64,000 nt of DNA, from positions 28,392 through 92,391 of the forward strand of contig CBDUXP010000007.1 of assembly GCA_965371225.1 (NCBI GenBank). The letters run 5' to 3'. Below, in pieces: positions 5,944 to 40,373 of this stretch. Position numbers and translations under genes: made by a program. The stretch comes from an uncultured bacterium. GTDB taxonomy: Bacteria > Abyssobacteria > SURF-5 > CBDUXP01. The notes beneath the pieces were generated by a model. The model had not been told where the DNA came from. It saw only the letters and a program-made list of their open reading frames with translations, and did no database searches. Each line of letters begins with the position of its first letter. Position 1 is the stretch's first letter.

Positions 5944-5977
5944 ACCAACCCTCGCGCAGTCCACCGCGCCGGGCGCT

Positions 5978-6006
5978 TTGACCGCCGCCGGGGGCCTGGC
6001 TATACT
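5978..6006 (+). promoter_or_regulatory. Sigma70-type promoter (TTGACC, 17-nt spacer, TATACT) for the downstream secreted-protein gene
   Basis: Near-consensus -35 and -10 hexamers with a 17-nt spacer, read directly from the sequence. An AGGTGG Shine-Dalgarno lies about 10 nt before the ATG at 6057. Confidence 0.45.
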
Positions 6007-6056
6007 GGGCGCCGAGCCGATGGAGGGGAAAGGCTTGGCTCGAAAGGTGGGATGTA

Positions 6057-6788: not shown

Positions 6789-6804
6789 GGTCTCACGGCC
6801 CGGC

Positions 6805-8568
6805 CTAGCCGCTGGGGCCTGGTGCGGCGGATGCCCGCCGGCCCGCGCGCACCGCCACGACCAAGCTGCACAGCAGCGCGCTCGCGGCGACGCCCATGAA
6901 TTGCAAGAGCCCCACGAGCAGGACCGCGACGGCCGGGTCGCGCTGATCCCAAGGGTGGGGGTCTAGCCCGAAGCCCACTAAAAAGACGGCAGCGCCCGCC
7001 GTCGCCACCGCGGCCAGGCCGCCCGCCACGCTGGCAACCACGCTGCCGAACTTCGGCGCCGCCGCGGTCTGGCGGCGCGCAAGCCAACGGGCCGTGAGGT
7101 AGGCCGCTATCAGCCCCAGCGCGCCCTCGCCGAATCGCGGGAGGGCGAACGGGGCAAGCCCCCGACGGCCCGGGCCGCTCAGGCTGTACCCGTTTCCCCC
7201 GGCCAGGAACAGCCCTACGGGCACAAGGACCCCGACCGCGATACCGGCGATCAGCCAAACGGGCGGGTTCTTCGCGGGGGGCGCGCCCGCGCGCGCGGCC
7301 CGCCGGCGCAGGAGCCCCGAGAGAACCATGGCCCCGAGTCCCAGGCCGGTCGCCGCATAGAGCCGCGGCCGTAAGAACCGCTGGGCGGCGAGGGCCAAGT
7401 GCTCGTGCCACCGAAAGCGCAACGCAGAGGCCAGGTTGGCCGCTTCCGACCACGCCAGCTTCCACTGCTGCGCGCCCAGCGCCGCATCCACCAGGTCGGT
7501 CCGCAAACCCCGCGGCATCGGCGCATCCAACTGCGGATCGGCCAGACCCAGCCGGTCGAGGCGGAAGCGATACGCTTGCAACCGTTGCGCCACCGTATCG
7601 CGCCCGCGGCGCGCGCGAACTTCCGGCGCACAGTCCAGCGCGTCATACAGGGGCCAGCCTTCGTTGTGGGTCGGGATGGGTGTCCCCAGCAGCCACGCCA
7701 CGGTCGAGGCGAGGTCCCCCTGCTCCGCCTGACCCGCGGTACCTGGCCGAATGCCCGCGCCCGCTAACACGCAGGGCACAGTCGCCACGACCGGTTCTCC
7801 GCCCATGTGCCCGCCGCGGTCCAGGTGCCCGTGATCGGCGGTGACTACGAGCGTCTCGCGCGTGAAGTCCAGCGCCCGAGCAATCTCCCCAATGCGTTCC
7901 CCCGTCCGCCGGGCCATCTCCAGATACTCGGGGGACGCACCACCCGCCACGTGGCCGGCGCGGTCCACGATGTCAAAGTGCACCCAGATCAGATTCGGTG
8001 CGTCCGGTTGGGCCAACACTTCGAGCAGGCGGGGCAGCAGGACGTCATCGTCCGCGTAGCCCGGCGCGCTCGGCAGCGAATTCGGCGCATCCAGAAACTG
8101 TTCGAGCGCGTACGGGGAGCGCCACGTCACGACGTTGCCCGTGCGCAACCCTGCCTGATGCGCCGCAGTGTAGATACTGCCGAACGTCCGGTAAAAGCCG
8201 GGGCCGACCGCGGCCGCTCCGGTGTTGTTGAGCATGCCGATGGTGAGTTGCGGCGCGCCGGTGGCAATCACATGCGAGAGCGGGATGGAGGCGGTGGGCG
8301 GCGCCACGCTCAGCGTCCAGTCGGCACCCTGCTCCCGGAGGGTATTGAGCGACGCCATCGCTCGCGACGCGTCCACGCGCAAGCCGTCCACCACGCACAG
8401 CACCACCCGCTCCGTCAGCGGCTCCCCCGCCGGACCCCACGGTAGCGGCTCAGCGAACGGCGTGCGGTACAGCGTCGCGCGGGCGTTCAGTTGCGTGAGC
8501 AGCCCCGCGCCGCACACTCCCAACGCCGCAACCAGGAACAGGAGTCGCGCAGGCGTAAATCGGAACAT
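6805..8568 (-). CDS. Alkaline-phosphatase-superfamily enzyme (nucleotide pyrophosphatase/phosphodiesterase-like) with a C-terminal multi-TM anchor
   Basis: Metal-ligand motifs of the AP/NPP fold (VVDGLRVD near the N-terminus, VTADHGH later). The C-terminal ~200 aa are strongly hydrophobic. Confidence 0.6.
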   Translation of the reverse strand: MFRFTPARLLFLVAALGVCGAGLLTQLNARATLYRTPFAEPLPWGPAGEPLTERVVLCVVDGLRVDASRAMASLNTLREQGADWTLSVAPPTASIPLSHVIATGAPQLTIGMLNNTGAAAVGPGFYRTFGSIYTAAHQAGLRTGNVVTWRSPYALEQFLDAPNSLPSAPGYADDDVLLPRLLEVLAQPDAPNLIWVHFDIVDRAGHVAGGASPEYLEMARRTGERIGEIARALDFTRETLVVTADHGHLDRGGHMGGEPVVATVPCVLAGAGIRPGTAGQAEQGDLASTVAWLLGTPIPTHNEGWPLYDALDCAPEVRARRGRDTVAQRLQAYRFRLDRLGLADPQLDAPMPRGLRTDLVDAALGAQQWKLAWSEAANLASALRFRWHEHLALAAQRFLRPRLYAATGLGLGAMVLSGLLRRRAARAGAPPAKNPPVWLIAGIAVGVLVPVGLFLAGGNGYSLSGPGRRGLAPFALPRFGEGALGLIAAYLTARWLARRQTAAAPKFGSVVASVAGGLAAVATAGAAVFLVGFGLDPHPWDQRDPAVAVLLVGLLQFMGVAASALLCSLVVAVRAGRRASAAPGPSG

Positions 8569-28040: not shown

Positions 28041-31000
28041 ATGGGTCTGGCCGACTTCTCCGTCCGGCGCGCCGTCGCGGCCTCCATGATGGTCCTGATC
28101 GTGCTCGTCCTGGGCGCGGTGTCGTACTTCCTGATTCCGGTCGACATCATGCCGGACATGACGTTTCCGGTGATCATGGTGCAGATCGACTACGAGGGGG
28201 TGGGGCCGGAGGAGATCGAAAACTCGATCACCAAAATGGCGGAGGAGGCGTTGAGCCGCGTCGACGGAGTCAAGATGCTGCGCAGCGTCTCGACGCGCGG
28301 GTTCGTGCAACTCGTCATCGAATTCGATTGGGGGCGCAATCTGGACTCGGCGGTGATAGACGTTCGCGAGAAGCTCGACCAGATTCCGGATTTCATGTGG
28401 CCGGACGACGCCGACCGGCCCCGCATCCAGAAGTTCGACCCGTCGGATATCCCCCTCATGGGCATCACCGTGTACGGCGGCGGCAATGACGTGCACCAAC
28501 TCCAAGTGATCGCGGAAGATTATTGCGAGGACGTCATCGTCGGGGTGGAAGGCGTCGCCGCCGTCAGCATCTTCGGCGGGCCGCCCCGCCAGGTGTTGGT
28601 CTCCGTGGATCAGGACCGTCTTGCCGCCCACAACTTCGCCATCCAGACCGTGCTCGAAAAGCTCGCCAGCGAGAATTACAACCTCTCGGCCGGCAGCATG
28701 AAGGAAGGGCACAAGGACTATCTGGTCCGGGCGCTCGGGGAATTCACGTCCATCCGCGAAATTGAAGCGGTGATTCTCGGCATGGCTGGTGGGGCGCCCA
28801 TCCGATTGGCTGACGTCGCCACCGTCATTGAGACCTACGCGGACGACGTGGTCATTGCGCGGAACGACGGCGAGCCCAGCGTCATGTTGATGCTCACGAA
28901 ACAGTCCGGCGCGAATACCGTTGCGGTGAGCGCCCGGGTCTGGGAGAAAATCGCCGAGATTCAGGAGCAGCTCCCGCCCGGGATCGAAATCATAAAAACG
29001 TTCGACACCGCGGATTTCATCAACGAAGCGATTCGTAACGTCCTGGGCAACCTGCTGTGGGGCGGGATGCTGGCCGTGGGCGTTCTCCTGATCTTCCTCC
29101 GGCACCTGCGCCCCACCCTCATCATCGCCATCGCGATCCCCATCTCCCTGCTGACGGCGCTGGTCCCCATGTATTTCCTGGGCACCACGATCAACATGAT
29201 GTCGCTCGGCGGGCTCGCGCTGGCCACGGGCATGCTGGTGGACAACGCCATCGTCGTGCTCGAGAACATCTACCGGCGACAGGAGGATGAGGGGGAGCAC
29301 CGGATGGATGCGGCGCGGCGCGGCGCCCGCGAGGTGACCGGTGCGATCACCGGCTCCACCCTCACCACTATCGTCGTGTTCCTCCCCATCGCGTTCACGC
29401 AAGGATTCGCCGCGCGCCTGTTTCGCGACCTCGCCCTCACCGTGACGTTTGCGCTGGCCGCGTCGCTGTTTACCGCGGTCACGCTCGTGCCCATGCTCGC
29501 CTCCCGCCTGCTGGGTAGCACCACGCGCAGCCGGAGCAGCCGGGGGGTATGGATGCGGCAGCTGACCATCGCGTATCGGGGCTTGGCGCGCGCGGTGGTC
29601 GCGAATCGGTGGAGGGTCTTCGTGGTCGGCAACCTCCTCTGGGTCTTCAGCTTCTTCCTGTTCGGTGCGCTGGAGCGGGAGTTCTTGCCCACCCCGAACG
29701 ACGTCACGATCATGGTGACGGCTGAATTGCCTCGCGGCGTACGCCTGGAAGAAACCGATCGGATCGCCCGGCTGATCGAGGACATCCTGGCCGACTTTCC
29801 GGAGATCGTTTCCGCACGCGCCATGGTCGGGGTCGACACCCAGCGTGACGGCCCGGACCCCAAAAAAGCCTCATTCATCCTGACCCTCAGCCACCAATCG
29901 GACCGCGAGCGTACGGTGGCAGAAATCGTGGACGATATTCGGCAGCGCGTGAGCGCCATCCCCGGGATCGAACGGTTCAACTTCGTCAACCTCCAGAGCC
30001 AGAGCATGGGCGGGGGCGGCGGGAAACCCATCGAGTTGAAAATTTTCGGCAAGGACCTGGAGACCCTGGTCGCGCTCTCCTACGCCACCCTCGAGCGACT
30101 GAAAGAGACGGACGGCGTCCTCGATCCCGAAATTCAATTGACCTACGGGGATCCCGAAGTACAGGTGCGCTTCGACCGGGAGCGCGCCGCCCAACTGGGG
30201 ATGCCGATCCGGTTCACCGCCGACCTCATGGAAGCCGCGATTAAGGGGAAAGCGGCGAGCCGGTACCGCTCCCACGGCGAGGAGTACGACATCGTGGTGC
30301 GGTTGGACGAGGTTGACCGGAACAGCGTGGCGGACATCGGGGCCCTCCACTTCATCACCCCCACGGGCGCCCGCACCCAGCTCAGCGATCTTGCGGACGT
30401 CCGCTATGGCGCGGGACCGACGCGCGTGTACCGGGAAAATCAGAAGCGGGCCGCCACCATCGTCTGCAACAAGGCAGTGGGCTATGGGGATGCGAGCGTC
30501 GTCGCGAACATTCAAGTGGCCCTTGCGGACCTGCCCTTACCGCCGGGGTACTACATCGAGTACGGGGGGTCGTACGAGCGCATGCAGGAGACGCTGCGCG
30601 ATCTGGGCTTCGCCGCGGCGCTGGCGGTGCTGCTGGTGTACATGATCATGGCGGCGCTGTTTGAATCGCTCGTCCTGCCCCTGGCGATCATGCTGTCCGT
30701 GCCCTTCGCCTTCGTGGGCTCGCTCTGGGCGCTGCTAATCACCGGCACCACCCTCTCCGCCGTGTCCGGCATCGGCACGATCCTGCTCGCGGGCATTGTC
30801 GTGAACAACGGCATTGTGCTCGTGGACTATGCCAATCAGTGCCGGCTCCGTGGCGTGTCCCCCGAGGCAGCGATCATCAAGGCCTGCGTGACGCGCCTGC
30901 GGCCGATCCTGATGACCAACTGCACGACGATTCTCGCGCTGTTGCCCATGGCGCTGATCGGCGGGGCCGGCGTGGAAATGCGCCGGCCACTGGCCATCAG

Positions 31001-31181
31001 CATCATTGGGGGCCTCACCTTCGGCGTGGTGCTCACGCTGGTGCTCTTGCCCTCCGCGTATCTCCTCCTGTCGACGCTGGGAGACCGGGTGAGCCGCGCG
31101 ACCCTACGCGTGCTGCATGGGGAGGAGGACGCCGCTCTCCCGGCAGCAGGGGCCGACCGGGGGCCCACTGAGCCGTTCTAG
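28041..31181 (+). CDS. Efflux RND transporter permease subunit (AcrB/CzcA family)
   Basis: 1046 aa with a 12-TM, two-large-loop architecture and conserved AcrB-family segments (FFLRHLRPTLIIAIAIPISLL, GLALATGMLVDNAIVVLENI). Confidence 0.9.
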   Translation: MGLADFSVRRAVAASMMVLIVLVLGAVSYFLIPVDIMPDMTFPVIMVQIDYEGVGPEEIENSITKMAEEALSRVDGVKMLRSVSTRGFVQLVIEFDWGRNLDSAVIDVREKLDQIPDFMWPDDADRPRIQKFDPSDIPLMGITVYGGGNDVHQLQVIAEDYCEDVIVGVEGVAAVSIFGGPPRQVLVSVDQDRLAAHNFAIQTVLEKLASENYNLSAGSMKEGHKDYLVRALGEFTSIREIEAVILGMAGGAPIRLADVATVIETYADDVVIARNDGEPSVMLMLTKQSGANTVAVSARVWEKIAEIQEQLPPGIEIIKTFDTADFINEAIRNVLGNLLWGGMLAVGVLLIFLRHLRPTLIIAIAIPISLLTALVPMYFLGTTINMMSLGGLALATGMLVDNAIVVLENIYRRQEDEGEHRMDAARRGAREVTGAITGSTLTTIVVFLPIAFTQGFAARLFRDLALTVTFALAASLFTAVTLVPMLASRLLGSTTRSRSSRGVWMRQLTIAYRGLARAVVANRWRVFVVGNLLWVFSFFLFGALEREFLPTPNDVTIMVTAELPRGVRLEETDRIARLIEDILADFPEIVSARAMVGVDTQRDGPDPKKASFILTLSHQSDRERTVAEIVDDIRQRVSAIPGIERFNFVNLQSQSMGGGGGKPIELKIFGKDLETLVALSYATLERLKETDGVLDPEIQLTYGDPEVQVRFDRERAAQLGMPIRFTADLMEAAIKGKAASRYRSHGEEYDIVVRLDEVDRNSVADIGALHFITPTGARTQLSDLADVRYGAGPTRVYRENQKRAATIVCNKAVGYGDASVVANIQVALADLPLPPGYYIEYGGSYERMQETLRDLGFAAALAVLLVYMIMAALFESLVLPLAIMLSVPFAFVGSLWALLITGTTLSAVSGIGTILLAGIVVNNGIVLVDYANQCRLRGVSPEAAIIKACVTRLRPILMTNCTTILALLPMALIGGAGVEMRRPLAISIIGGLTFGVVLTLVLLPSAYLLLSTLGDRVSRATLRVLHGEEDAALPAAGADRGPTEPF

Positions 31182-31636
31182 GAGTAATCGGGGGTCGTGG
31201 TATTGCGGCGCTGGTGGTCGTAACCGACCCAGCGCGACTCGCCGGCCACCAGGTGCTCCTTCTTCCACAGCGGCGTATGCAACTTGATCTCGTCCATGAT
31301 CCACTGGCAGGCGTCGAACGCCGGCTTCCGATGGGCGCTCGCGCAGGCGATGGCCACCAGCGTGTCCCCGACCGCGCGCTCGCCGATGCGGTGCGTGATG
31401 GCCACGTCGGACAGGTCGAATTGCGTGATGGCGCGCTCCGCAACGCTCGTGAGCGACTTCACGGCCATGGACTCATAGCACTCCCACGACATGCCGGAAA
31501 TGGGCTGCCCGTCCGGGGCAAGGCTGCGCACGGTGCCGAGGAACGTCACGATCGCACCGATATCGTCCGCCCGCAACGGAGCCACCAGGGCGTCCAACTG
31601 AAAATCGCCTTCCTGGATGCGAATGTGCGGCACCAT
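31178..31636 (-). CDS. moaE: Molybdopterin synthase catalytic subunit MoaE
   Basis: MoaE family match (GAIVTFLGTVR...WKKEH). The start overlaps the moaD stop. Confidence 0.85.
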   Translation of the reverse strand: MVPHIRIQEGDFQLDALVAPLRADDIGAIVTFLGTVRSLAPDGQPISGMSWECYESMAVKSLTSVAERAITQFDLSDVAITHRIGERAVGDTLVAIACASAHRKPAFDACQWIMDEIKLHTPLWKKEHLVAGESRWVGYDHQRRNTTTPDYS

Positions 31637-31881
31637 CAGCCCCCGCTGACGGGTGGGATCAAGGCGATCGTATCCCCCGCTTTCACTCTGGCGCCCTCGT
31701 GCGCATACTCTTCGTTAAGCGCCACGAGACAGCTGGGCAGCGCCTGGCCGATCGCCGGGTAGTCGGCCGCCAAGTCCTCGAGTATGCGGCTCACCGGCGT
31801 CCCGTCCGGTGCGTCGAGTTCGAGTTCCCCGAACCCCACACGCTCGCGCAAACCGGCAAAACACAGAATCGTCACCGCCAC
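31636..31881 (-). CDS. moaD: Molybdopterin synthase sulfur-carrier subunit MoaD
   Basis: 81-aa ubiquitin-like protein ending in Gly-Gly (IALIPPVSGG). A GTG start is assumed, because the longer upstream extension is not MoaD-like. Confidence 0.7.
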   Translation of the reverse strand: MAVTILCFAGLRERVGFGELELDAPDGTPVSRILEDLAADYPAIGQALPSCLVALNEEYAHEGARVKAGDTIALIPPVSGG

Positions 31882-31933
31882 GCGGGCACTGTAGCATAGC
31901 CATGTACCCCGTACACCGACCACTACGCATCGT

Positions 31934-32311
31934 ATGACCAGAGCCACCGTCCTCCTTATCGACGACAACCTCTTCTTCCTGGACAAGCTGAAGCACCAGG
32001 TGGAAGCTGCGGGCTTTGCGCCCAAGTCGGCCATGTTCTCTGCTGCGGTCGACTCCGCCCTCGACTCTCGCTTGCCCGCCGCCGTCGTGGTCAACCTGGA
32101 AGCGGACCGCATGGACGCGCTCGCCATCATCGCGGACCTCCGCGCGCACCAGGGGCTCGCGAGCACGCCGATCGTGGCGTTTGCGGGCCACGTGAAGCCG
32201 GAATTACTTCAGCAGGGTCAGGAAGCAGGCGCGACGCGCGTCGTCACCAACGGCCAGATCGCATCCGGCTTGGCGCAGATGCTCCAGGAACTGTGCGCCG
32301 AACAGCCCTGA
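31934..32311 (+). CDS. Single-domain response regulator (CheY-like receiver)
   Basis: Receiver motifs are present: VLLIDDN near the N-terminus, an Asp in AAVVVNLEADRMD, and a conserved Lys context. There is no output domain. Confidence 0.7.
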   Translation: MTRATVLLIDDNLFFLDKLKHQVEAAGFAPKSAMFSAAVDSALDSRLPAAVVVNLEADRMDALAIIADLRAHQGLASTPIVAFAGHVKPELLQQGQEAGATRVVTNGQIASGLAQMLQELCAEQP

Positions 32312-32328
32312 CGACCGACGGGGCGGTG

Positions 32329-33465
32329 TTACCCCTCGTCGGCCCGCCCCGCCCCTTGCGCGGCGATGACTTGCTCGGGCGCGCCGTGCGGCTGGAGCGG
32401 CGGCGGCTTGGGCAAGCCAAGGCGCGGGGCCAGGTCGTCCGCCAGCCACGCCCCGAGGACGGCGTATCCGCGCGTATTGGGATGCCGCTGCTCGCTCATG
32501 AGGCGGTCCGGCCCGAGGGAGACGAACAGCGGACGGACATCGCGCACGGGCACCTGGAACGTGGCGCCTGCCTGCTGGAGCTGCGCGACGGTGATGGGCC
32601 GCTGGTTGTACAGGACGAGAATGAGCGACGGTATCCCGCGGTCCCGCAACATGGCGAGCATGCGGGTGTAATTGTCGTACGTCTTGTTCGCGCGTTCGGG
32701 ATCGACCGCATCAGGCGCCGCGGCTTCCCGGGCGCGCAGGACGGCGCGCTTATAGCGGCGGTACGCGGCGCTCCGGGTGAGGCCCCGCTGCATGACCGCG
32801 CGCCAGTCGGACCGGCCGTGCGCGGCCAGAAACACCCGCATCTCCCGGGGATGCATCCAGACATCGTTATGCCCATAGGCCAGGATCACGAAGTCCGGCT
32901 TCAGCGGCAGGATCACCTGCTCGAGCCACAGCACCCCGTGGTCGCTGGAATAGGACGGGACGCCCGCGTTGATCACCTCGACGCGACCCGGGGCCACGCG
33001 GTCGAGCTGCTGTTGCACCACCGCCGGGTAGGTGAATTCGTCCGGCGCGTTCAGCCCGAAGGTGACGCTGTCTCCCAGGCAGGCCAGGCGCACCGCCGGC
33101 CGGGCATCGCGGAGTTCCGGGCCGCGGAATCCCTGGGCGTTCAACCGGACGTGGTAGGTCTGCTCGACCGCCTGCATGGGATTGAGATTGACCAGGTACC
33201 GGTACTCCGTCTCGTAGTGCGGCCGCGGCCGCCAGAGCAGGTCCCGATCGAGCACGAACATACTCTGGGGGCTCGTGCGGTAATGATCCTCTATACCGAT
33301 GACCTCGGCCGCATAGGGGTTGGCGTTGGACTCCACCAGCCAGGCCAGCCCCTCCACCCCCAGCCCGAGGAGCAGCAGAAACACGAGCGTGAAGGCGGCG
33401 CTCTTGAGCGGCCCCGGGCTGGCGGACGTGTGGGGCGGCGCGGGCGCGGGCGCCGAATCGGCCAT
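32329..33465 (-). CDS. SGNH/GDSL-family hydrolase
   Basis: GDSL block LACLGDSVTFG, with later D-x-x-H-type context. There is an N-terminal hydrophobic segment. The start was set at the internal ATG (MADSAPAP...). Confidence 0.65.
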   Translation of the reverse strand: MADSAPAPAPPHTSASPGPLKSAAFTLVFLLLLGLGVEGLAWLVESNANPYAAEVIGIEDHYRTSPQSMFVLDRDLLWRPRPHYETEYRYLVNLNPMQAVEQTYHVRLNAQGFRGPELRDARPAVRLACLGDSVTFGLNAPDEFTYPAVVQQQLDRVAPGRVEVINAGVPSYSSDHGVLWLEQVILPLKPDFVILAYGHNDVWMHPREMRVFLAAHGRSDWRAVMQRGLTRSAAYRRYKRAVLRAREAAAPDAVDPERANKTYDNYTRMLAMLRDRGIPSLILVLYNQRPITVAQLQQAGATFQVPVRDVRPLFVSLGPDRLMSEQRHPNTRGYAVLGAWLADDLAPRLGLPKPPPLQPHGAPEQVIAAQGAGRADEG

Positions 33466-33858
33466 GCGCCGAGTATACCAACCGCGAGTGTCCGGCCCGC
33501 CCGAGGAGACGGCCGGCGTGCGAGGGTAGCGCAACAGGGGGGAGTCTTGACACTCTAGTACGCGCCGGGTAGCCTTGCGCCGAATTGCGTTCCCGCATGC
33601 CACGAGGGGAACCCATCCGACGCGGGGCCGCAGCGGCGCCGTCAGGGAGCGGTGGCCGGTGGCGGCCCCCGGCGCGGACGGGCTGGAGCACTGGACGGGC
33701 GGTTCGCGGCCCGTGTGGTCCCCGACGGCTGGGAAACGGGATTCCCCCGCCGAACGACATCACGCCATGCACGGTAGACCACAGACTGGTGCCGCCCCCG
33801 GTGGGCGGCGTGGTACACCTGCTGCGCGCGCACATAGAGAGCCTGAAAGGACGACGCT

Positions 33859-34623
33859 ATGGACGCCATGAACCTGCTTGAGTCGCTCTTCCGCTGGACG
33901 CACGTCGTGGCCGGCATCCTGTGGATTGGCTTGCTGTTCTTCTTCAATTGGGTCAACAGCGCCTTTGCGCCGACCATGGATGCGGACACGAAGAAGAAGG
34001 TCGTGCCCGAGCTGCTCCCCCGCACGCTCTACTGGTTCCGCTGGGGCGCCGCGTACACCTGGATCACCGGGGTCGTCCTCCTGCTGCTCGTTTTCTACCA
34101 CACGGGGATCGTGCGCGAAAACACCGAGGCAGGCTTGACCACCGGCACCTGGATCTTCTTCGCCCTCACGTTTGCGCTCGTGTTCGCGTACGACGCACTG
34201 GCCAAGGGCCCCATGAAGCCCCTGCCCAACGCGTTCTGGGGCGGCGTGATCGGGACCGCGATTTGGGTGTTTGTCCTGGGCGTGATCGGCGGCTTCAGTT
34301 TCCGGGGCGTGGCCATCCACTTGGGGACCCTGTTCGGGAGCAGCATGGCGTTCAACGTGTGGTTCCGCATCTGGCCGGCGCAGCAGAAGATCATCACCGC
34401 GATCAAGAACGGCGAGGCGCCCGACGCGGACCTGACCGCGCTGGCGGGCCTGCGGTCGAAGCACAACACCTACATGTCCATCCCGCTGGTGTTCGTCATG
34501 CTGAACCAGCACAGCACCTGGGCGGCCAGCCCATCACTACTGTGGTTGCCCGCGGTGGTCGCCGTCGGGTGGCTCGTGTGCACGCAGCTGTACAACAAGG
34601 CCAAGACCGTCCCCGGCTTCTAA
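33859..34623 (+). CDS. Integral membrane protein, DUF989/urate-hydroxylase-PuuD-N-terminal-like
   Basis: Six predicted TM helices. The N-terminal motif FRWTHVVAGILWIGLLFFFNWVN resembles the membrane domain of PuuD-type proteins. This family assignment is recalled from memory and was not searched. Confidence 0.5.
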   Translation: MDAMNLLESLFRWTHVVAGILWIGLLFFFNWVNSAFAPTMDADTKKKVVPELLPRTLYWFRWGAAYTWITGVVLLLLVFYHTGIVRENTEAGLTTGTWIFFALTFALVFAYDALAKGPMKPLPNAFWGGVIGTAIWVFVLGVIGGFSFRGVAIHLGTLFGSSMAFNVWFRIWPAQQKIITAIKNGEAPDADLTALAGLRSKHNTYMSIPLVFVMLNQHSTWAASPSLLWLPAVVAVGWLVCTQLYNKAKTVPGF

Positions 34624-34688
34624 CCCCCGGGGACGGGCAGCGGCCCAAGCGGCCCCAGAGCCTGGGCCGACGTCCCTGGAGGGCCGGG

Positions 34689-35504
34689 ATGCCTGGATAT
34701 CGACGACGCGTGAGGACCGCGGCCGTGCTCGCGGTGTGCGTGCTCGGGTGCGGACAGAAGGAATCGGACCCGGCCGCGCCTTCCCCCGCCCCCGCGGCGG
34801 CGGCGCCGGCCCCGGTAGCCGAGCCCACGCCGGCTCCCATCCCGCCCCCCCCCGGCAGCGGCGTTAAGCTGACCGGCACCGTGACCGGGCCAGTGCCGGC
34901 GGACGAACCGAAGGCGCTTCGCATGGCCGCGGATACCTACTGCAAGAACGCGCACGATGCGCCGGTGTATAGCCAGGCGGCTGCGATCGGCGCCGACGGC
35001 GCCGTGCAGTGGGCGTTCGTGTACGTGAAGGTGGGCCTAGACCATATAGCGTTCCCCACGCCCGAGGCGCCGGTGGTGCTGGACCAGAAGGGCTGCATGT
35101 ACGAGCCCCACGTCTTCGGCGTGCAGACCGGGCAGACTATCGAGATTCACAACAGCGACAAGACGCTGCACAACGTCCACGCGCTGCCCAAGCGCCCGAA
35201 CAAGGCCTTCAACATCGCCCACCCCGCGGTGGCCAGCATAGTGCACAGGCGAAGCTTCAAGTGGCCGGAAGTCGCGGTGCGCATCAAGTGCGACGTGCAC
35301 CCGTGGATGAACGCATACGCCGGAGTCGTGCCCCACCCCTTCTTTGCCGTGACGGACGCGAACGGCCGCTTCGCCATCGCCGACCTGCCGCCGGGCGAGT
35401 ACACCGTCGCGGCGTGGCACGAGCGGCTCGGCGAAGTCGAAGGACCGATCACGATCCCGGGGGATGGCGCGCCCACCCTCGACTTGGCGTTTACCGAGCC
35501 GTAG
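34689..35504 (+). CDS. Cupredoxin (amicyanin/pseudoazurin-like blue copper protein) lipoprotein
   Basis: Lipobox VLGCGQ, a Pro/Ala linker, then the type-1 copper ligand pattern HNVH ... C-D-V-H-P-W-M (Cys-x2-His-x2-Met, as in amicyanin CTPHPFM). Confidence 0.55.
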   Translation: MPGYRRRVRTAAVLAVCVLGCGQKESDPAAPSPAPAAAAPAPVAEPTPAPIPPPPGSGVKLTGTVTGPVPADEPKALRMAADTYCKNAHDAPVYSQAAAIGADGAVQWAFVYVKVGLDHIAFPTPEAPVVLDQKGCMYEPHVFGVQTGQTIEIHNSDKTLHNVHALPKRPNKAFNIAHPAVASIVHRRSFKWPEVAVRIKCDVHPWMNAYAGVVPHPFFAVTDANGRFAIADLPPGEYTVAAWHERLGEVEGPITIPGDGAPTLDLAFTEP

Positions 35505-35513
35505 CGGCCGGCG

Positions 35514-36074
35514 CTACTTGATCAGCGGGAGCGCCTGCTTGAATTCCGGCGTGCCGGCTTTGCCCATGATCTCGTACATGGCGGCCTCGGTACTCGTGAG
35601 CACCACGCCCGCGTCCCGCATCTTCTGCACGCCCTGCGCGTACTCCTCCGGCTTGCGGGATTCCACCGCGTCCGCGAGCACGTGCGCCTTGTAGCCCGCA
35701 TGAAGCGCGTCGAGCGCGGTCTGCGCGACGCAGATGTGCGCCTCGACACCGGTCACAACCACGCTCCCCACGTTCTCCGCCGCGAGCGCCTTCACGAAGG
35801 CGTCATTGCCGAAGCAACTGAATTCCGTCTTCTCGGTGGGCGCCAGGCCGTCCATCTCGGCTTGAATTGTCTCGACCGTCCGGCCGAGGCCGCGGGGATA
35901 CTGCTCCGTCCAGAGGATCGGCAGGCCGTAAATCTTCGCAAACCGGATGAACTTGACGGTATTCGCGGTCACGCGCTCCACCGCGTTCGGATCGAACACG
36001 GCCAGCAGCTTCTCCTGGAAATCGACGACCAACAGCGCAGTATTCTCGGCGGTCAAGATGTGGTCGTGTCGCAT
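35514..36074 (-). CDS. Isochorismatase-family cysteine hydrolase
   Basis: Isochorismatase-like fold signatures (ALLVVDFQ, VVVTGVEAHICV). Confidence 0.8.
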   Translation of the reverse strand: MRHDHILTAENTALLVVDFQEKLLAVFDPNAVERVTANTVKFIRFAKIYGLPILWTEQYPRGLGRTVETIQAEMDGLAPTEKTEFSCFGNDAFVKALAAENVGSVVVTGVEAHICVAQTALDALHAGYKAHVLADAVESRKPEEYAQGVQKMRDAGVVLTSTEAAMYEIMGKAGTPEFKQALPLIK

Positions 36075-37585
36075 CAGGATTCCTCCCCGCCGCCGGGTGG
36101 GGCCGCGGCCGCCGTCCGCCCCGAAGCCCGTGCGCGAAGCAGGACAGGCACCCGCCGTATCGGCACCATCAGCTCCCCATTCAGCGGCTTGACCACCGCC
36201 ATATTGAATTGCCCGATCGTATTCTGCACCATCTCGCCGATTTCCACGGTCTCATCGGTCAGCTTCAGCGAGACCTGCGTCGCCACATCCGCCTCCAGCG
36301 CATTGAGCTTGTATTCGCGCGTCGCGGCGTAATCCCACCACAGGACGTACACGAGCGCGTCGGAACCCCGGCGCGGAAACTGCAGCACCACCACCTCGTT
36401 CTGCCCATCGCTCAGCACGGACGCCGAGTCGTAATCCACCTGACCCAGCAGCCGCACGAGCAATCGGTACGAGGTGTACGCCAGCTTCGGCGCGCCATCG
36501 TGATCCCGCAGCCCGCTGTAAAACGTCCGATTCTTCCACTGGTGCGGACCTTGCTCCGTAATCCCGGCCTCGTAAATGCGGTGCACCCCGTTCGCGAGCA
36601 TGTAGGTATACCGGCGCACGAGATCGGCCCCCTGCGTGAGTTCGCTGGCCTCGCGATCCCGCATGGCATTGCGCGGCGTATAGCGGCTGTACGAACAGCT
36701 CAACGTGCACCAGAGGGGCCGATCCCCCGCCCGCACGCGCATCGCCTTCACCGCCTTGCGTAATTCCTCCGACACCAGCGTGCGCGGCAGATACTCGAAC
36801 GCCACCACGTCCACCTGTGCGCCAGCCGGGCTGGCCAGGATCCCGTCCAGCACGTCTAAGCCCGAGTCCCGCTCGTCCGCCGAACTGATTGCCCCGACCA
36901 CCACCCGGGCCGTGGGCTCCGCCGCGCGGATCGCGTCGGCGGCCGCGCCGAGCACGCGCACGTATTGGTCCACGGTGGCGTAGCGCCCCCCGCTCAGCCC
37001 GACCAAGAGGTCCGGCGTCTCCCCCACCTGCCACGCGCCGATCCGGAAGCGGAGGCCGGGCATGTCGTCGGTCCCATCGCCGTCATACCGCTCGACCACG
37101 GCCCGCACCCACGCGCCATACGCCTCGAGGTCCGCGGGCAGGTACCGGTGCCCTTGCTCGGCATCGACCGCCGGGTCCCGGTGCAGAGCCAACACCGGCA
37201 AGACGTTGATGCCCGCCCGTTGCGCCGCCGTGACCAGCGCATCCGTGCGGGCGAAGGTGATGTCCGTGCCCCGACCCCGGGGATCCATCCGATCCCAGGC
37301 GAAGCCGGCGTACTCCCCCGGCCGGACGCGATAGTGGCGGGCGCCAAGTTCCGTGGCGTGGGCCAGGTCCTTGTCCTCGAGCACCGCCATCACCTCGGAG
37401 GGATTGAGGCGCTGCAACTCGGCCTGCTCCTCGGAATAGTCGAATACCCGGCTCAGACCGAAGGGCGATGCCAATTCGGGATACACCGGCACGGCTTCCG
37501 CCCCACCGCGCACGGGCCCCACCCACAGCAGGCAGCCGACCGTGCAGACTACAACCCGGGTTCCAGCCGCGATGGAGAGTCGCAT
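36074..37585 (-). CDS. Putative secreted glycoside hydrolase (TIM-barrel, GH5/GH39-like)
   Basis: Signal peptide, then a ~400-aa domain with an alternating beta/alpha pattern and candidate catalytic acids. The family assignment is tentative. Confidence 0.45.
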   Translation of the reverse strand: MRLSIAAGTRVVVCTVGCLLWVGPVRGGAEAVPVYPELASPFGLSRVFDYSEEQAELQRLNPSEVMAVLEDKDLAHATELGARHYRVRPGEYAGFAWDRMDPRGRGTDITFARTDALVTAAQRAGINVLPVLALHRDPAVDAEQGHRYLPADLEAYGAWVRAVVERYDGDGTDDMPGLRFRIGAWQVGETPDLLVGLSGGRYATVDQYVRVLGAAADAIRAAEPTARVVVGAISSADERDSGLDVLDGILASPAGAQVDVVAFEYLPRTLVSEELRKAVKAMRVRAGDRPLWCTLSCSYSRYTPRNAMRDREASELTQGADLVRRYTYMLANGVHRIYEAGITEQGPHQWKNRTFYSGLRDHDGAPKLAYTSYRLLVRLLGQVDYDSASVLSDGQNEVVVLQFPRRGSDALVYVLWWDYAATREYKLNALEADVATQVSLKLTDETVEIGEMVQNTIGQFNMAVVKPLNGELMVPIRRVPVLLRARASGRTAAAAPPGGGEES

Positions 37586-37597
37586 AGGTGGCCTAGT

Positions 37598-38572
37598 TTA
37601 CACGCCAACCGGCACCGGCTCCGCCACGGGGCACAGATGAGGCGACAAGGCGCGGAAAAAGGCCAGATCGTGGCGGTGCGAGGATTTCACCACCGTGAAG
37701 TGGCACCCCTCCAGCGGCCCGGCCAAGGCGACGGTGCCGAGGAAATCGATGATCTTGTGCCGCACGAATTCGTCCGCCACCCCCCCGTACCGCACCGGTC
37801 CGCGAACCCGGCCCCGCTCCATAATCAACATGCTCTGTTCGGAGATGCCGGTCCCCAGTCCGTACCGCGGGTAGAAGAGGCGCGCCCCGAAGCGCACGAG
37901 GGCCGATGGCAGCCACGCGTACTGGTTCATCAATGTGCGCGCCCGGCTGACCTGGTCCCGAAACGCGACGGGCTCCACGTCCAACGTCACCGTGGCGTCA
38001 GGGATGCCCAGATGTGGGTAGCCGCCCGTATACGTCACGCGCAGGCCGGGTCCCGGTTCCACGCGGACGGAGTCTCCCCGCTGGGCATCCGTCAGCTCGA
38101 AGGGCGCACTCACGGTGCGCGGACGCCGCGGCGCAGGCTGTGTCACCACCCCCGCCGCCTCGATGGCGGCGATGAAGCCTTCCGTGCTGTCGGCAAGCAA
38201 GGGCAGCGCCTGGCGGTGGAAGAGCTTGGGCCAGAGCCCCGGCTTCTCGAGGACGACGGTCGCGTTATCGATGCCCCACGCGACGAAAACCGCGTTCAGG
38301 TGTTCCACGTTCGTGATGACGGTGTCGCCGTCCTGGAGACAGATGCACCGATCCCGATTCGTCGCCGTCTCCAGCGTCGCGGGCACGGGCACGGATTCCA
38401 AGACGACGGTGTCGCGATCGGCTCGCCCCAGGGCATACCGCAAGCCCGACTCCGGTCGGGCGGGTAACACGCGGACGCGGGTGCGGGCCCCGCTCTGCAG
38501 CTCCTGCCCGGCGACCCACGCCGTCGGCGCGGCCAGCGTCCGTTGCCGTGTGCGGCTAATAACCGGCCGCAC
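37598..38572 (-). CDS. lpxC: UDP-3-O-acyl-N-acetylglucosamine deacetylase LpxC
   Basis: LpxC motifs EFVRHKIIDFLG and HRHD, and overall family similarity. Confidence 0.85.
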   Translation of the reverse strand: MRPVISRTRQRTLAAPTAWVAGQELQSGARTRVRVLPARPESGLRYALGRADRDTVVLESVPVPATLETATNRDRCICLQDGDTVITNVEHLNAVFVAWGIDNATVVLEKPGLWPKLFHRQALPLLADSTEGFIAAIEAAGVVTQPAPRRPRTVSAPFELTDAQRGDSVRVEPGPGLRVTYTGGYPHLGIPDATVTLDVEPVAFRDQVSRARTLMNQYAWLPSALVRFGARLFYPRYGLGTGISEQSMLIMERGRVRGPVRYGGVADEFVRHKIIDFLGTVALAGPLEGCHFTVVKSSHRHDLAFFRALSPHLCPVAEPVPVGV

Positions 38573-40373
38573 CCCCTTCGCGGCGGGGATCGCTTCCCCC
38601 CATGATCAAGCCCGTGTCCGCCTCGACCCAGATGGCCTGCACATCGCCGAAGGACCGCCGCCGGACGGGCGACCCCCCCTCGACGGCATGGCCCCGCCCC
38701 TCCAGTTCCGACTGGACCTCGGGCGCCAGGGCAAAGCGCTCCGCCCCCAGGACGGGCGGGAGCCACTGGTGGTGGACCCGCGGCGCGTCAACCGCTTCCT
38801 GCACGGTCATGCCGAAGTCCACCATGTTGATGATGGTTTGTAGGACGGCGGTGATAATCCTGCTGCCACCGGGACTCCCGAGAACCAAGGCGACCCGGCC
38901 GTCCTTCGACAGGAGGGTCGGCGTCATGCTGCTCAGGGGAATCTTGCCCGGCGCCACGGCATTCGCTTCTCCCCCGACGAGCCCGTACAGATTGGGCACG
39001 CCGGGCTTCGCGCTGAAATCATCCATCTCGTTGTTCAGGAAGATGCCCGTCCGCCCCGCCACCACGCCCGCGCCAAAGTTCGCATTCAGCGTCTGCGTCA
39101 GCGCGACCGCGTTCCCCCAGCGATCCACCACGGAGAGGTGCGTCGTCTGCCCGGACTCGTAGCGCAGAGGGGTCCCCGGAGCGATGTCCTCGCTGGGCCG
39201 GGCCCAGTCCGGCGCGATGGCCATGCGCAGTTCCTCGGCGTACTCCTTGGACGTGAGACCGCGCACCGGCACCCTGACGAATGCGGGATCGCCGAGGAAC
39301 TTGGACCGGTCCGCATACGCCAGCTTCATGGTTTCCGCCAGGCGGTGCGTGTAGTCCACCGAGCCATAGCCCCAGGCGGCCAGGTCGTACCCCTCGAGCA
39401 CGTTCAACATCTGGAGCAGGTGCACGCCGCCGGAGCTGGGGGGCGGCATAGACCACACGTCGTAACCCCGGTAGGTGCCGTGCACGGGCATCCGAATCAT
39501 CGGCCGGTAGTTGGCGAGGTCCGCACGCGTGATGAGTCCGCCATGCGCCGCCATATCCTCCGCGATGGCCGCCGCAATCCGCCCGTGGTAGAAATCCTGC
39601 CACCCGGCCCGCGCGAGCCGCTTGAGCGTTCGGGCCAGCTGGCGTTGGCGGAGCAGGGTGCCTTCCGGCAGCGGGTCACCTTCATCGGTGAGGAGGATGG
39701 CCGCCGCCTCGGCATCGGTCGCCAACACGGCGCGCCGGCTGCGAATGGCCCGATGCAAGTGGGCGCTGACAGGAACGCCCCGGTCCGCAAGCCGAATGGC
39801 AGGGCGCAGGACAGTGCCGAGCCGCCTGGTGCCGTAGTCCTGGAGCGCGAGCGCCAAGCCGGCCACGCCCCCCGGCACTCCCGCGGCCAAGTACCCGTCG
39901 ACGCTCCGCCGCGGTACCACCTGGCCCGACTCGTCCAAGTACATATCGCGGGAGGCCGCCGCCGGCGCTTTCTCGCGAAAATCGATCACGACCACGTTCT
40001 GCTGCGCCGCGCGATAGATCAGCATGAACCCGCCGCCGCCGATGACTCCCGCGTACGGGGTGACCACGTTCAACGCGAACGAGGTGGCCACAGCCGCGTC
40101 CACCGCGGTCCCGCCATCACGCAAGACCTGCACGCCGACTTCCGAGGCGAGGGGATGCCCACTGACGACCACGCCGTTACGCGCGGCAAGGGGGCGCCGC
40201 GACGCGGCGGCCACCGGCGTACTCGGCGAAGCGAGCAGCCCCGCGGCGATGGAGAGGATGACGAGGCGAGGCACGTAGTGGTTCATAGGTTTCGTCGCTT
40301 CCGCGGTGCAGCGTGGGACGCCCGGATGGGTCAAGCGGTGCGGCGCATTATAGCGATGACGGCCCCTGCGCAC
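38556..40373 (-). CDS. ggt: Gamma-glutamyltransferase
   Basis: GGT signature around the autoprocessing Thr (GQTTHLSVVDRWGNAVALTQTLN) and a signal peptide. Confidence 0.9.
   Translation of the reverse strand: MRRGRHRYNAPHRLTHPGVPRCTAEATKPMNHYVPRLVILSIAAGLLASPSTPVAAASRRPLAARNGVVVSGHPLASEVGVQVLRDGGTAVDAAVATSFALNVVTPYAGVIGGGGFMLIYRAAQQNVVVIDFREKAPAAASRDMYLDESGQVVPRRSVDGYLAAGVPGGVAGLALALQDYGTRRLGTVLRPAIRLADRGVPVSAHLHRAIRSRRAVLATDAEAAAILLTDEGDPLPEGTLLRQRQLARTLKRLARAGWQDFYHGRIAAAIAEDMAAHGGLITRADLANYRPMIRMPVHGTYRGYDVWSMPPPSSGGVHLLQMLNVLEGYDLAAWGYGSVDYTHRLAETMKLAYADRSKFLGDPAFVRVPVRGLTSKEYAEELRMAIAPDWARPSEDIAPGTPLRYESGQTTHLSVVDRWGNAVALTQTLNANFGAGVVAGRTGIFLNNEMDDFSAKPGVPNLYGLVGGEANAVAPGKIPLSSMTPTLLSKDGRVALVLGSPGGSRIITAVLQTIINMVDFGMTVQEAVDAPRVHHQWLPPVLGAERFALAPEVQSELEGRGHAVEGGSPVRRRSFGDVQAIWVEADTGLIMGGSDPRREGGAAGY

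Follow-up and report, generated by a model that had tools for sequence, protein, structure and literature searches.

Do two neighbouring genes, one for a membrane protein and one for a lipoprotein, encode the two parts of a single redox system in which a blue-copper protein takes the place of a haem c partner? This question is raised by a locus in the middle of a 64-kb window, i.e. the whole stretch of 64,000 nucleotides that was analysed. The genes follow each other on the + strand, the first one (hereafter MEM) at positions 33859-34623 and the second one (hereafter CUP) at positions 34689-35504, leaving a spacer of exactly 65 nt (34624-34688) between the MEM stop and the CUP start, as the preliminary description of this region had given it. 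A Shine-Dalgarno-like GGAGGG (34678-34683, + strand) precedes the CUP start by 5 nt, and a 10-bp GC hairpin (34607-34616/34627-34636) spans the MEM stop codon (34621-34623). The stability of the spacer fold is no greater than that of shuffled sequence (z = -1.27), and no T-run terminator is present on the + strand of the spacer. Similarly, neither a sigma-70-like promoter nor a + strand terminator was found at MEM and CUP, and no Rfam family was retrieved from positions 33300-35700 at E <= 1. Co-transcription of MEM and CUP in the window is plausible. Since MEM ends at its own stop codon and CUP is read in another frame, two polypeptides are encoded and no fusion is present here. An open reading frame at 33921-35504, which has the frame of CUP and overlaps MEM, is a high-GC artefact and no fusion. 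The G+C content of the window is 67%.

MEM is a 254-aa integral membrane protein with seven helices, assigned to a short subfamily (~250 aa) of Urate_ox_N/DUF989 without a cytochrome c domain. Its match to the Pfam family PF06181 (Urate_ox_N, formerly DUF989) reaches 141.9 bits (E 3.7e-41; cut-off 26.9) and consists of two stretches, the best one spanning profile positions 62-261 of 295. The N-terminal motif R12 W13. H15 V16. A18 G19 .. W22 I23 G24 .. F F, from which membership of DUF989 had been proposed beforehand, is indeed present. The preliminary description was also right in stating that no cytochrome is fused to the membrane protein. The protein stops at residue 254, contains a single Cys and zero CXXCH motifs, and thus has no fused cytochrome c; no cytochrome domain was found in it by Pfam either. 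The AF2 model of MEM (pLDDT 83) shows the seven helices, and the Lys and Arg residues, 14 of which occur in the odd loops and the C-terminus versus three in the N-terminus and the even loops (sequence count), indicate an N-out/C-in topology. At least 4838 homologues were found, with identities of 57-80%.

Across the short DUF989 subfamily, the alignment contains four invariant His residues, namely H15, H154 (codon 34318-34320), H202, and H218. The first of these, in the RW.H motif (codon 33901-33903, + strand), is located at the periplasmic end of helix 1 in the AF2 model. H15, H202, and H218 are invariant in the aligned PuuD-type and fusion proteins as well, and H154 is nearly invariant there. 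All four are candidate cofactor ligands, a role that we infer from this conservation. H15, H154, and H218, together with H81 (present in 90% of the sequences), form a periplasmic His cluster at the ends of helices 1, 5, and 6, and a polar cluster at the cytoplasmic face comprises K47, E51, R55, Y111, D112, Q175, R199, H202, and N203. In the alignment of MEM with PuuD-type proteins, both cytochrome c-fused and cupredoxin-fused ones included, the invariant residues are R12, H15, W22-I23-G24, W59-F60, W62, Y111-D112, R149, N166, P173, Q175, R199-S200, H202-N203, and H218.

To our knowledge, PuuD is the sole DUF989 protein with an assigned function. This integral-membrane cytochrome c urate oxidase, known from Agrobacterium fabrum (Doniselli et al. 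2015, PMC4562309), shares with MEM the Urate_ox_N/DUF989 domain and its invariant core, and combines a membrane domain with a periplasmic one-electron carrier, as the window pair would. However, only PuuD has eight helices, an extra conserved segment in loop I-II, a fused C-terminal cytochrome c (CXXCH), and a place in purine-catabolism clusters, whereas the window encodes seven helices, no haem c motif, and a separate cupredoxin, with no purine genes nearby. In the alignment, MEM lacks the PuuD-type segment of ~20 residues in cytoplasmic loop I-II (W-M-V-H-G-G-x-x-Y-x-V-E-K) as well as helix VIII, and displays Y-W-F-R-W-G versus H-W-F-K-W-E in all aligned PuuD-type sequences. Judged by alignment, MEM is a member of a distinct and abundant 250-aa DUF989 subfamily and not PuuD minus its cytochrome. 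The PuuD-type identity proposed in the preliminary description therefore holds for the Pfam family and the shared core, but not for the loop I-II segment, helix VIII, and nearby purine genes. All full-length DUF989 members carry cytochrome c according to the PuuD paper (PMC4562309), which also describes a short variant in Sphingobium, Pseudomonas stutzeri, and Magnetospirillum with four helices (I, II, V, and VI). The latter resembles MEM in its non-purine gene context and in being devoid of the cytochrome c domain, but keeps four helices versus seven in MEM. The window MEM is a third, intermediate DUF989 form, not described in that paper.

CUP encodes a predicted lipoprotein of 271 aa, in which portions of a CarboxypepD_reg-like beta-sandwich lie on both sides of a cupredoxin domain. 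Its N-terminus, MPGYRRRVRTAAVLAVCVLGC, consists of a signal peptide and a lipobox, recognised by sequence pattern as V-L-G-C21 (Cys21 codon 34749-34751, + strand), followed by a Pro/Ala-rich tether (residues ~22-56). The lipobox was found in most of 20 aligned CUP homologues, and CUP is predicted to be exported to the periplasm and lipid-anchored at Cys21. The cupredoxin domain (35061-35333, + strand; residues ~125-215) contains the copper-site motifs H161-N-V-H164 and C201-D-V-H204-P-W-M207. Alignment with amicyanin by hhalign (probability 84%, E 7.6e-6) places H161, C201, H204, and M207 on His53, Cys92, His95, and Met98, respectively, and the C-x2-H-x2-M loops of the two proteins are of equal length. 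The predicted type-1 copper ligands are thus His161 (35169-35171), Cys201 (35289-35291), His204 (35298-35300), and Met207 (35307-35309), all on the + strand and all invariant in 106 CUP homologues. These results bear out the full type-1 copper site that had been ascribed to this lipoprotein. No curated cupredoxin model matched CUP above threshold (Cupredoxin_1, 12.7 bits versus a cut-off of 27, E 0.13), and no NCBIfam match was found; the CUP family is too divergent for current cupredoxin sequence models. A search of PDB sequences with the single MEM or CUP sequence gave nothing meaningful and only the CUP family profile reached cupredoxins, namely a Nitrosopumilus blue-copper protein (E 0.0016) and amicyanins (E 0.016-0.06). 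The AlphaFold model of CUP (pLDDT 83) matched NirK, amicyanin, pseudoazurin, and plastocyanin in Foldseek with a probability of 1.00 and target-normalised TM-scores of 0.6-0.72. Taken from ligand alignment and predicted fold, the central domain of CUP is a cupredoxin with a predicted type-1 (blue) copper centre.

Compared with amicyanin, pseudoazurin, and plastocyanin, CUP has the same fold and ligand set, its H-N-V-H and C-x2-H-P-[FW]-M motifs being almost letter-for-letter those of amicyanin, although identity amounts to only ~18-25% over ~100 structurally aligned residues and the sequence falls below the Pfam cupredoxin cut-off. Among these proteins, only CUP has a lipid anchor and a long tether, a cupredoxin domain embedded in a CarboxypepD_reg-like sandwich, and an extra, invariant Cys pair (C85 and C136). 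The C-terminal part of this sandwich (35334-35489, + strand) matches PF13620 just below threshold (31.6 bits, cut-off 32.3; profile positions 32-80 of 82) and contains an invariant His216 and an invariant Trp243-His244-Glu245. Genes for methylamine dehydrogenase, the partner of amicyanin (mau cluster), were not among the genes called within 10 kb in the syntenic relative L161. Cytochrome c_y resembles CUP as a membrane-anchored periplasmic one-electron carrier with a long Ala/Pro-rich linker, and the only weak PDB match in the single-sequence search with CUP was to this linker; however, CUP carries copper instead of haem and a lipid anchor instead of a helix, so the resemblance is functional only. 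The CUP family counts at least 2545 homologues, many of which are named 'plastocyanin' in IMG.

The two genes were found together in other genomes as well. Among 80 species-representative MEM loci (the best 80 of at least 594), CUP occurs within 1.2 kb of MEM in 17 genomes and is directly adjacent in 15; when only loci flanked by 1.5 kb or more on each side are counted, the proportion is 17 of 57. Of the 12 best-scoring MEMs, 10 have CUP beside them. The two genes thus occur together far more often than by chance, in favour of the preliminary proposal. The labelled taxa among the MEM+CUP loci include Binatia, Polyangiaceae, Planctomycetota, and Limnocylindria. Four arrangements were encountered, namely convergent, MEM before CUP, CUP before MEM, and one gene apart; in loci L054 and L067, the intervening gene is without a Pfam match. 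MEM and CUP converge in 10 paired loci, which is most of them, and hence are not co-transcribed as one operon there. In a neighbour-joining tree, the MEM-adjacent CUPs fall into at least three separate CUP lineages, that of the window among them, indicating that the link between MEM and CUP was made or kept repeatedly. No third partner gene is common to all MEM+CUP loci. In addition, CUP is absent within 8 kb in ~70-80% of the species with a short-subfamily MEM (best 80 of at least 594 loci), and a trace of MEM was found in only one of 80 metagenomic CUP loci. Hence the partnership is facultative, unless the partner gene lies elsewhere. Two Binatia loci also have a gene for a lipoprotein monohaem cytochrome c directly upstream of MEM. 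Elsewhere, genes of the CUP family lie immediately downstream of those for cytochrome b and multihaem cytochrome c and ahead of those for cytochrome oxidase subunits, a position expected for a respiratory electron carrier.

Natural fusions of both families were retrieved too. In all 123 of at least 123 such proteins (520-593 aa, about 540 aa), DUF989 is N-terminal to the CUP domain, which occupies the position of the cytochrome c of PuuD, and the copper ligands are conserved in 122-123 of the 123. Examples are P0325, P0334, P0367, P0294, and P0420. When P0325 is compared with the window proteins, its N-terminal half matches MEM at 36% identity (E 1e-43) and its C-terminal half matches CUP at 42% identity (E 2e-50), so that the order is that of the window. 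Four of the six fusions examined adjoin genes for allantoinase, allantoicase/OHCU decarboxylase, and HIU hydrolase, which are urate-degradation clusters; one of those examined also adjoins xanthine dehydrogenase, and another one has the gene for the copper chaperone SCO1 (SCO1/SenC) directly upstream. This architecture and context indicate that the CUP domain takes the place of the electron-relay cytochrome of PuuD (PMC4562309). The fusions thus correspond to the window pair in homology of both halves, gene order, copper ligands, and flanking beta-sandwich. Yet, they are single polypeptides with a full-length, PuuD-type membrane domain according to the alignment, and most of those examined lie in urate clusters, whereas the window has separate genes, the short subfamily, and another context. 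Several of the fusions are labelled 'urate hydroxylase PuuD' by NCBI and 'uncharacterized membrane protein/plastocyanin' in IMG. In the literature, no paper was found that joins DUF989/PuuD with a cupredoxin or plastocyanin, or that describes a cupredoxin/CarboxypepD_reg protein.

Altogether, MEM and CUP rather likely constitute a two-part, membrane-bound redox module in which a cupredoxin serves as relay. The preliminary description had suggested a split membrane oxidoreductase using a cupredoxin instead of haem c, and family membership, ligand alignment, recurrent adjacency, and natural fusions all speak in favour of this suggestion. Against it speak the absence of CUP beside most short-subfamily MEMs, the convergent loci, the full-length membrane domain of the fusions, and a window in which no respiratory, purine, or peroxide gene indicates a pathway. 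As MEM belongs to a distinct short subfamily and has no purine genes nearby, the term 'split PuuD' would be too specific. In the proposed mechanism, CUP would be exported and lipid-anchored via Cys21, carrying its type-1 copper centre on the flexible Pro/Ala tether. It would dock on the periplasmic face of MEM and exchange single electrons with a MEM-bound cofactor at that face, and may link onward to the aerobic respiratory chain. Its role would equal that of the fused cytochrome c in PuuD and of the fused CUP domain in the ~540-aa DUF989::cupredoxin proteins; indeed, CUP most likely does the electron-carrying job of the fused cytochrome c of PuuD. Urate oxidation is probably not the reaction that MEM catalyses at its cytoplasmic or membrane face. 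What is proposed here, and not observed, comprises contact and electron transfer between MEM and CUP, the cofactor and substrate of MEM, and the direction in which electrons flow.

Several other explanations have to be weighed against such a module. MEM and CUP may be neighbours only, CUP being a general periplasmic respiratory carrier and MEM an unrelated membrane enzyme or transporter, brought together by inherited synteny or shared regulation. This would agree with a CUP family that is much broader than MEM (MEM is missing from 79 of the 80 metagenomic CUP loci), with the many CUPs that follow a peptidase M23 gene or belong to bc-complex/cytochrome-oxidase operons, with the absence of CUP from most MEM loci, and with the convergence in 10 loci, which excludes a shared transcript. 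It is nevertheless unlikely, in view of the direct adjacency in 15 species versus ~0.1 expected (a rough figure that assumes at most three CUP copies per ~4000 genes), the four arrangements, the at least three CUP lineages, and the at least 123 covalent fusions of both families. Alternatively, the pair could be a split urate oxidase, oxidising urate at the cytoplasmic face and passing electrons to the periplasmic carrier. Indeed, MEM and PuuD share one Pfam family and an invariant core, cupredoxin-fused DUF989 proteins occur in urate-degradation clusters, and NCBI calls several of the closest 250-aa homologues of MEM 'urate hydroxylase PuuD', a label that is probably wrong for this subfamily. 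However, MEM lacks the loop I-II segment and helix VIII and has the altered Y-W-F-R-W-G motif, and tblastn retrieved no purine-catabolism genes (HIU hydrolase, OHCU decarboxylase, allantoinase, or allantoicase) from the 64-kb window or the 17 MEM+CUP loci, for which reason urate oxidation was rejected as the main reading. Moreover, a quite different gene context of shorter DUF989 proteins has been noted before (PMC4562309). A urate-oxidising pair is thus very improbable.

A reversed electron flow is conceivable as well, from the respiratory chain via CUP and MEM to cytoplasmic rubrerythrin/DUF3501 or peroxiredoxin, in defence against peroxide, unless MEM itself detoxifies a membrane oxidant. 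At least one gene of this kind occurs in the 8-kb flanks, mostly at less than 3 kb, in 25 of 81 MEM-bearing sequences (the best 80 loci and the window), with 18 cases of a FUR-family regulator, 10 of DUF3501, 12 of AhpC/TSA peroxiredoxin, and eight of KatG. Furthermore, Binatia display a string rubrerythrin-DUF3501-FUR-CUP on one strand, converging on MEM, and a Marinimicrobia locus has the order MEM-FUR-thioredoxin-reductase-like-1-Cys peroxiredoxin. DUF3501 is a known companion of 'aerobic-type' rubrerythrin, the electron donor of which is unknown (PMC5114695). However, these associations are clumped in a few clades and such genes are found in neither the window nor most MEM+CUP loci; the 64-kb window contains no genes for a bc complex, cytochrome oxidase, SCO1, FUR, rubrerythrin, DUF3501, AhpC, or M23. 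In addition, electrons are supposed to move outward in PuuD, the only characterised relative. Reversed flow is accordingly quite improbable for the window pair, and it seems equally doubtful that the 250-aa DUF989 subfamily as a whole serves the oxidative-stress response by conducting electrons across the membrane, between a periplasmic carrier and cytoplasmic peroxide-reducing systems. As its carrier, such a conduit would use the cupredoxin in the window and, in some Binatia, a lipoprotein cytochrome c; 'aerobic-type' rubrerythrin/DUF3501 or peroxiredoxins would be the targets. If true, cytoplasmic peroxide removal would be paid by respiratory-chain electrons, and the long-missing donor of rubredoxin-less rubrerythrins would be supplied. 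Finally, copper might be passed between CUP and MEM for import or for cuproenzyme loading, as in CopC/CopD, where a periplasmic copper-binding beta-sandwich protein is likewise encoded beside a polytopic membrane protein. Conserved His residues at the periplasmic face of the multi-helix MEM and the SCO1/SenC gene directly upstream of one fusion would fit such copper handling. The copper sites of CopC are, however, Cys-free, whereas that of CUP has the buried His/Cys/His/Met type-1 pattern, identical to amicyanin, that is typical of electron transfer. Similarly, no homology of MEM to CopD was detected (hhalign of the MEM profile against E. coli YebZ, 1.1% probability, a weak test with a single sequence on one side), and the fusions replace an electron-relay cytochrome within a catabolic cluster, all of which makes copper handling highly improbable.

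The preferred reading, a MEM-CUP redox module, would imply that the DUF989 family works with a blue-copper carrier too, whether this carrier is fused to the membrane domain or encoded as a lipoprotein of its own. The use of cytochrome c or cupredoxin by DUF989 proteins would then be a further case of haem/copper interchange, like that of plastocyanin and cytochrome c6. In addition, an extensive cupredoxin family that has no name, with thousands of sequences that score below the Pfam cupredoxin cut-off, gains a ligand set and at least two contexts, namely respiratory operons and DUF989. The pairing also provides a handle on an abundant and highly conserved membrane protein of Binatia, Marinimicrobia, Acidobacteriota, and Planctomycetota, as a coloured, easily purified partner protein could be used as a read-out in the search for the substrate of MEM.

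The membrane protein gene (MEM; 33859-34623, + strand, 254 aa) had been assigned to DUF989 in the preliminary description, which was confirmed by its sole Pfam match, Urate_ox_N/DUF989 (PF06181; 141.9 bits, E 3.7e-41); no NCBIfam model was retrieved with MEM. This family includes PuuD, the cytochrome c-fused membrane urate oxidase of Agrobacterium fabrum. As also claimed before, no cytochrome is fused to MEM, which contains one cysteine and no CXXCH motif. Its AlphaFold model (pLDDT 83) has seven helices, and a count of Lys and Arg residues, with 14 on one side (odd loops plus C-terminus) and 3 on the other (N-terminus plus even loops), gives an N-out/C-in topology, in agreement with the published N-out topology of PuuD (PMC4562309). 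MEM was aligned with full-length proteins fused to either cytochrome c or a cupredoxin, and shares an invariant core with them (R12, H15, W59-F60, W62, Y111-D112, R149, R199-S200, H202-N203, and H218), with H154 kept in all sequences except one. According to alignment and model, the invariant His residues of MEM mostly lie where helices 1, 5, and 6 end on the periplasmic side, and a second conserved polar cluster lies on the cytoplasmic side. Unlike PuuD-type proteins, MEM lacks about 20 residues of the cytoplasmic loop I-II (the WMVHGGxxYxVEK segment) as well as helix VIII, and carries YWFRWG instead of HWFKWE. The sole shorter form mentioned in the PuuD paper, called the 'short variant', has four helices and occurs in another gene context (PMC4562309); the 250-aa, 7-helix form is a third type beside this variant and full-length PuuD. 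This large subfamily, probably mis-annotated, is abundant and unusually conserved (57-68% identity between homologues labelled as different phyla), and 1041 family members were retrieved at E <= 1e-10 from 1.84 billion representatives. Two tandem Urate_ox_N domains were present in proteins P0254, P0256, P0261 (~700 aa), and P0268 (549 aa), while P0365 (lipocalin/CrtC plus DUF989) and P0377 (CobD plus DUF989) could be either genuine fusions or errors of gene calling.

The neighbouring lipoprotein gene (CUP; 34689-35504, + strand, 271 aa) encodes a signal peptide with a lipobox (VLGC21) and, behind it, a segment rich in Pro and Ala. Matches in Pfam were sub-threshold, namely Cupredoxin_1 (E 0.13) and, at the C-terminus, the second half only of CarboxypepD_reg (31.6 bits, slightly below the cut-off). 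The AlphaFold model (pLDDT 83), built from an alignment of 20 CUP homologues, gave significant Foldseek matches in the PDB to cupredoxins only (NirK, many amicyanin entries, pseudoazurin, plastocyanin, and CuA domains; target-normalised TM-scores of 0.6-0.72), and a profile search of PDB sequences retrieved 5fc9, a blue-copper protein of Nitrosopumilus (E 0.0016), as well as amicyanins (E 0.016-0.06). When the same 20-homologue alignment was compared with amicyanin by hhalign, CUP residues 125-209 were aligned with amicyanin residues 17-100 (probability 84%, E 7.6e-6), pairing H161, C201, H204, and M207 with His53, Cys92, His95, and Met98, respectively. The amicyanin sequence used matches PDB 1aac in length (105 residues). 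Amicyanin has nearly the same local motifs as CUP (HNVH and C-x-x-H-P-[W/F]-M). Among 20 aligned homologues, C85, C136, H161, H164, C201, H204, M207, H216, and W243-H244-E245 were invariant, and the four copper ligands and the C85/C136 pair were 100% conserved in 106 homologues from genomes and metagenomes. The copper site is predicted to be of the canonical electron-transfer type, and the amicyanin-like blue-copper lipoprotein proposed earlier is borne out by fold, ligand alignment, and lipobox. The CUP family comprises more than 2500 matches, many of them labelled 'plastocyanin' in IMG, and no paper on it was found. The cupredoxin domain is apparently inserted in a CarboxypepD_reg-like beta-sandwich (first strand 59-66, remainder ~216-267), and the family-wide invariants C85/C136, H216, and W243-H244-E245 may represent a disulfide bond and possibly another site.

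Both modules also occur in single chains. Pfam matches and sequences of P0294, P0325, P0334, and P0367 revealed a full-length Urate_ox_N domain joined by another hydrophobic segment and a linker to a complete CUP module (GTVxFxGTAP, QxxCxYxPRV, NSDPxxHNV, CDVHPWM, HPxFAVT, and WHE). With P0325 as query, more than 120 clusters of such fusions (520-593 aa) were retrieved, named 'urate hydroxylase PuuD' by NCBI and 'uncharacterized membrane protein/plastocyanin' by IMG; the fusions are P0294, P0325, P0334, P0367, and P0391-P0509. DUF989 was N-terminal to CUP in all 123 fusions, and the four copper ligands were kept in 123, 123, 122, and 123 of them. MEM and CUP of the window are 36% (E 1e-43) and 42% (E 2e-50) identical to the N-terminal and C-terminal halves of P0325, respectively. 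Urate-degradation clusters hold four of the six fusions examined (loci L163-L168). These clusters encode allantoinase, allantoicase/OHCU decarboxylase, and HIU hydrolase (of transthyretin type in the P0334 locus) beside P0294, P0334, P0367, and P0420. P0334 has SCO1/SenC directly upstream and is followed by the three urate-degradation genes, and P0367 comes last, behind xanthine dehydrogenase subunits and that set; purine genes were absent from the context of P0325 and P0444. Layout and clusters together indicate that a cupredoxin version of PuuD exists, on which no paper was found in the literature searched.

Co-conservation of the separate genes was examined in the best 80 MEM loci (of at least 594; one genome per species), the six-frame ORFs of which were searched with HMMs of both families. 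As the earlier pairing of the two genes had implied, CUP was found in 17 of these 80 loci (17/57 when only loci with at least 1.5 kb on either side of MEM are counted), directly adjacent in 15 and one gene off in two, and it lay beside 10 of the 12 MEMs with the highest family-profile scores. The arrangement was tail-to-tail convergent in 10 loci (the majority from Binatia or MAGs with a Deltaproteobacteria label) and convergent with one gene between in L054 and L067; on the same strand, MEM preceded CUP in the window, its closest relative (L161/L162), L006, and L010 (Polyangiaceae), and CUP preceded MEM in L053 (Planctomycetota), L056 (Limnocylindria), and L077. Conversely, among 80 CUP loci from metagenomes (31 with at least 1 kb on either side), MEM occurred in a single one, as a partial gene where the contig ends, indicating that CUP is the broader family, just some members of which accompany MEM. 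In a neighbour-joining tree (133 CUP domains, 216 columns, 100 bootstraps), fusion domains formed one clade (bootstrap 83) and MEM-adjacent CUPs two (15 members, bootstrap 67; three members, bootstrap 96), with the window/L161 CUP outside both, among general CUPs, at a position without support. With moderate support values, this indicates that several CUP lineages formed or retained the link, which argues for function over inherited gene order.

The best-supported reading is that CUP would act as the periplasmic one-electron partner of MEM, which would carry electrons between a reaction at the cytoplasmic face and a periplasmic carrier. This reading is based on the CUP module occupying the place of the relay cytochrome of PuuD-type proteins, on its electron-transfer copper site, and on its respiratory-gene contexts elsewhere, where CUP, often in tandem copies, lies directly downstream of genes for cytochrome b and multihaem cytochrome c, and upstream of those for cytochrome oxidase subunits. 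The conserved residues on both sides of MEM (periplasmic His and cytoplasmic polar cluster) are expected of such an electron mover. Of the split PuuD-like oxidoreductase with a cupredoxin relay proposed in the preliminary description, the cupredoxin in place of haem c is supported, a familiar haem-to-copper swap, but MEM belongs to a separate short subfamily and is not a split PuuD. The substrate of MEM is probably not urate, since the PuuD-specific loop segment is gone and no purine-catabolism genes were found in the window or in any locus with both genes. Alternatively, electrons might flow inward via MEM to peroxide removal. Within 8-kb flanks of 81 MEM-bearing sequences (80 loci plus the window), at least one of four peroxide-related families was encoded in 25, namely a FUR-family regulator (18/81), an AhpC/TSA peroxiredoxin (12/81, usually directly upstream), DUF3501 (10/81), and KatG (8/81), most matches lying less than 3 kb from MEM. 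In Binatia (L003, L007, L013, and L073), a one-strand string of rubrerythrin, DUF3501, FUR, and CUP converges on MEM; in L026 (Marinimicrobia), MEM, FUR, a thioredoxin-reductase-like gene, and a 1-Cys peroxiredoxin follow in that order, and peroxide-defence genes also neighbour MEM in L039, L074, and other Marinimicrobia loci. DUF3501 is a known companion of 'aerobic-type' rubrerythrin, the electron donor of which is unresolved (PMC5114695). Peroxide-defence genes are absent from the window and their associations are clumped by clade, and inward flow is an improbable reading. Together with the fusions and the probable mis-annotation, the peroxide-gene link provides a useful entry to an abundant membrane protein.

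In the window, MEM and CUP are 65 nt apart, with GGAGGG 5 nt ahead of the CUP start codon. A 527-aa ORF (33921-35504, + strand), easily mistaken for a MEM-CUP fusion, was rejected as such because the MEM and CUP frames differ; it extends the CUP frame back over the greater part of MEM, lacks homologues for its N-terminal part, and is an artefact of the 67% G+C DNA. A perfect 10-bp GC-rich inverted repeat (CCGTCCCCGG / CCGGGGACGG; 34607-34636) without a T-run spans the MEM stop codon, and a second 10-bp repeat is located at 34641-34669; the spacer fold was no more stable than that of shuffled sequence, and searches of the DNA surrounding the two genes detected neither a riboswitch nor a promoter or terminator. 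The neighbourhood (28041-40373) is completely syntenic with that of the closest relative (L161/L162; MEM 80% identical), encoding an RND pump, MoaE, MoaD/ThiS, a response regulator, an SGNH hydrolase, MEM, CUP, an isochorismatase, a 500-aa protein of unknown family, LpxC, and a gamma-glutamyltranspeptidase, and gives no pathway clue for the pair.

Further gene contexts were encountered in other loci. In metagenome loci L089, L111, L119, L131, and L152, CUP, often in two tandem copies, directly follows cytochrome b (in separate N and C parts) plus a multihaem cytochrome c of ~950 aa, with COX3/COX4 next; in 26 others it lies behind a peptidase M23 gene. In L026, a MAG of a Marinimicrobia-like group, genes for a xanthine-dehydrogenase-like FAD/2Fe-2S subunit, a cytidine/guanine-deaminase-type protein, and an adenosine-deaminase fragment (5224-7469, - strand) are directly upstream of a glutamate-synthase-like fragment and MEM, and may connect part of the short subfamily with purines. 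Small cytochromes c with CXXCH are encoded directly beside MEM in L003 (7509-7865, + strand, with lipobox), L007 (~7490-7831, + strand), and L031 (8831-9469, - strand), those of the Binatia L003 and L007 being monohaem lipoproteins encoded directly upstream of MEM, with CUP on the other side. PSCyt1-type cytochromes occur ~2 kb upstream in L066, L068, and L074.
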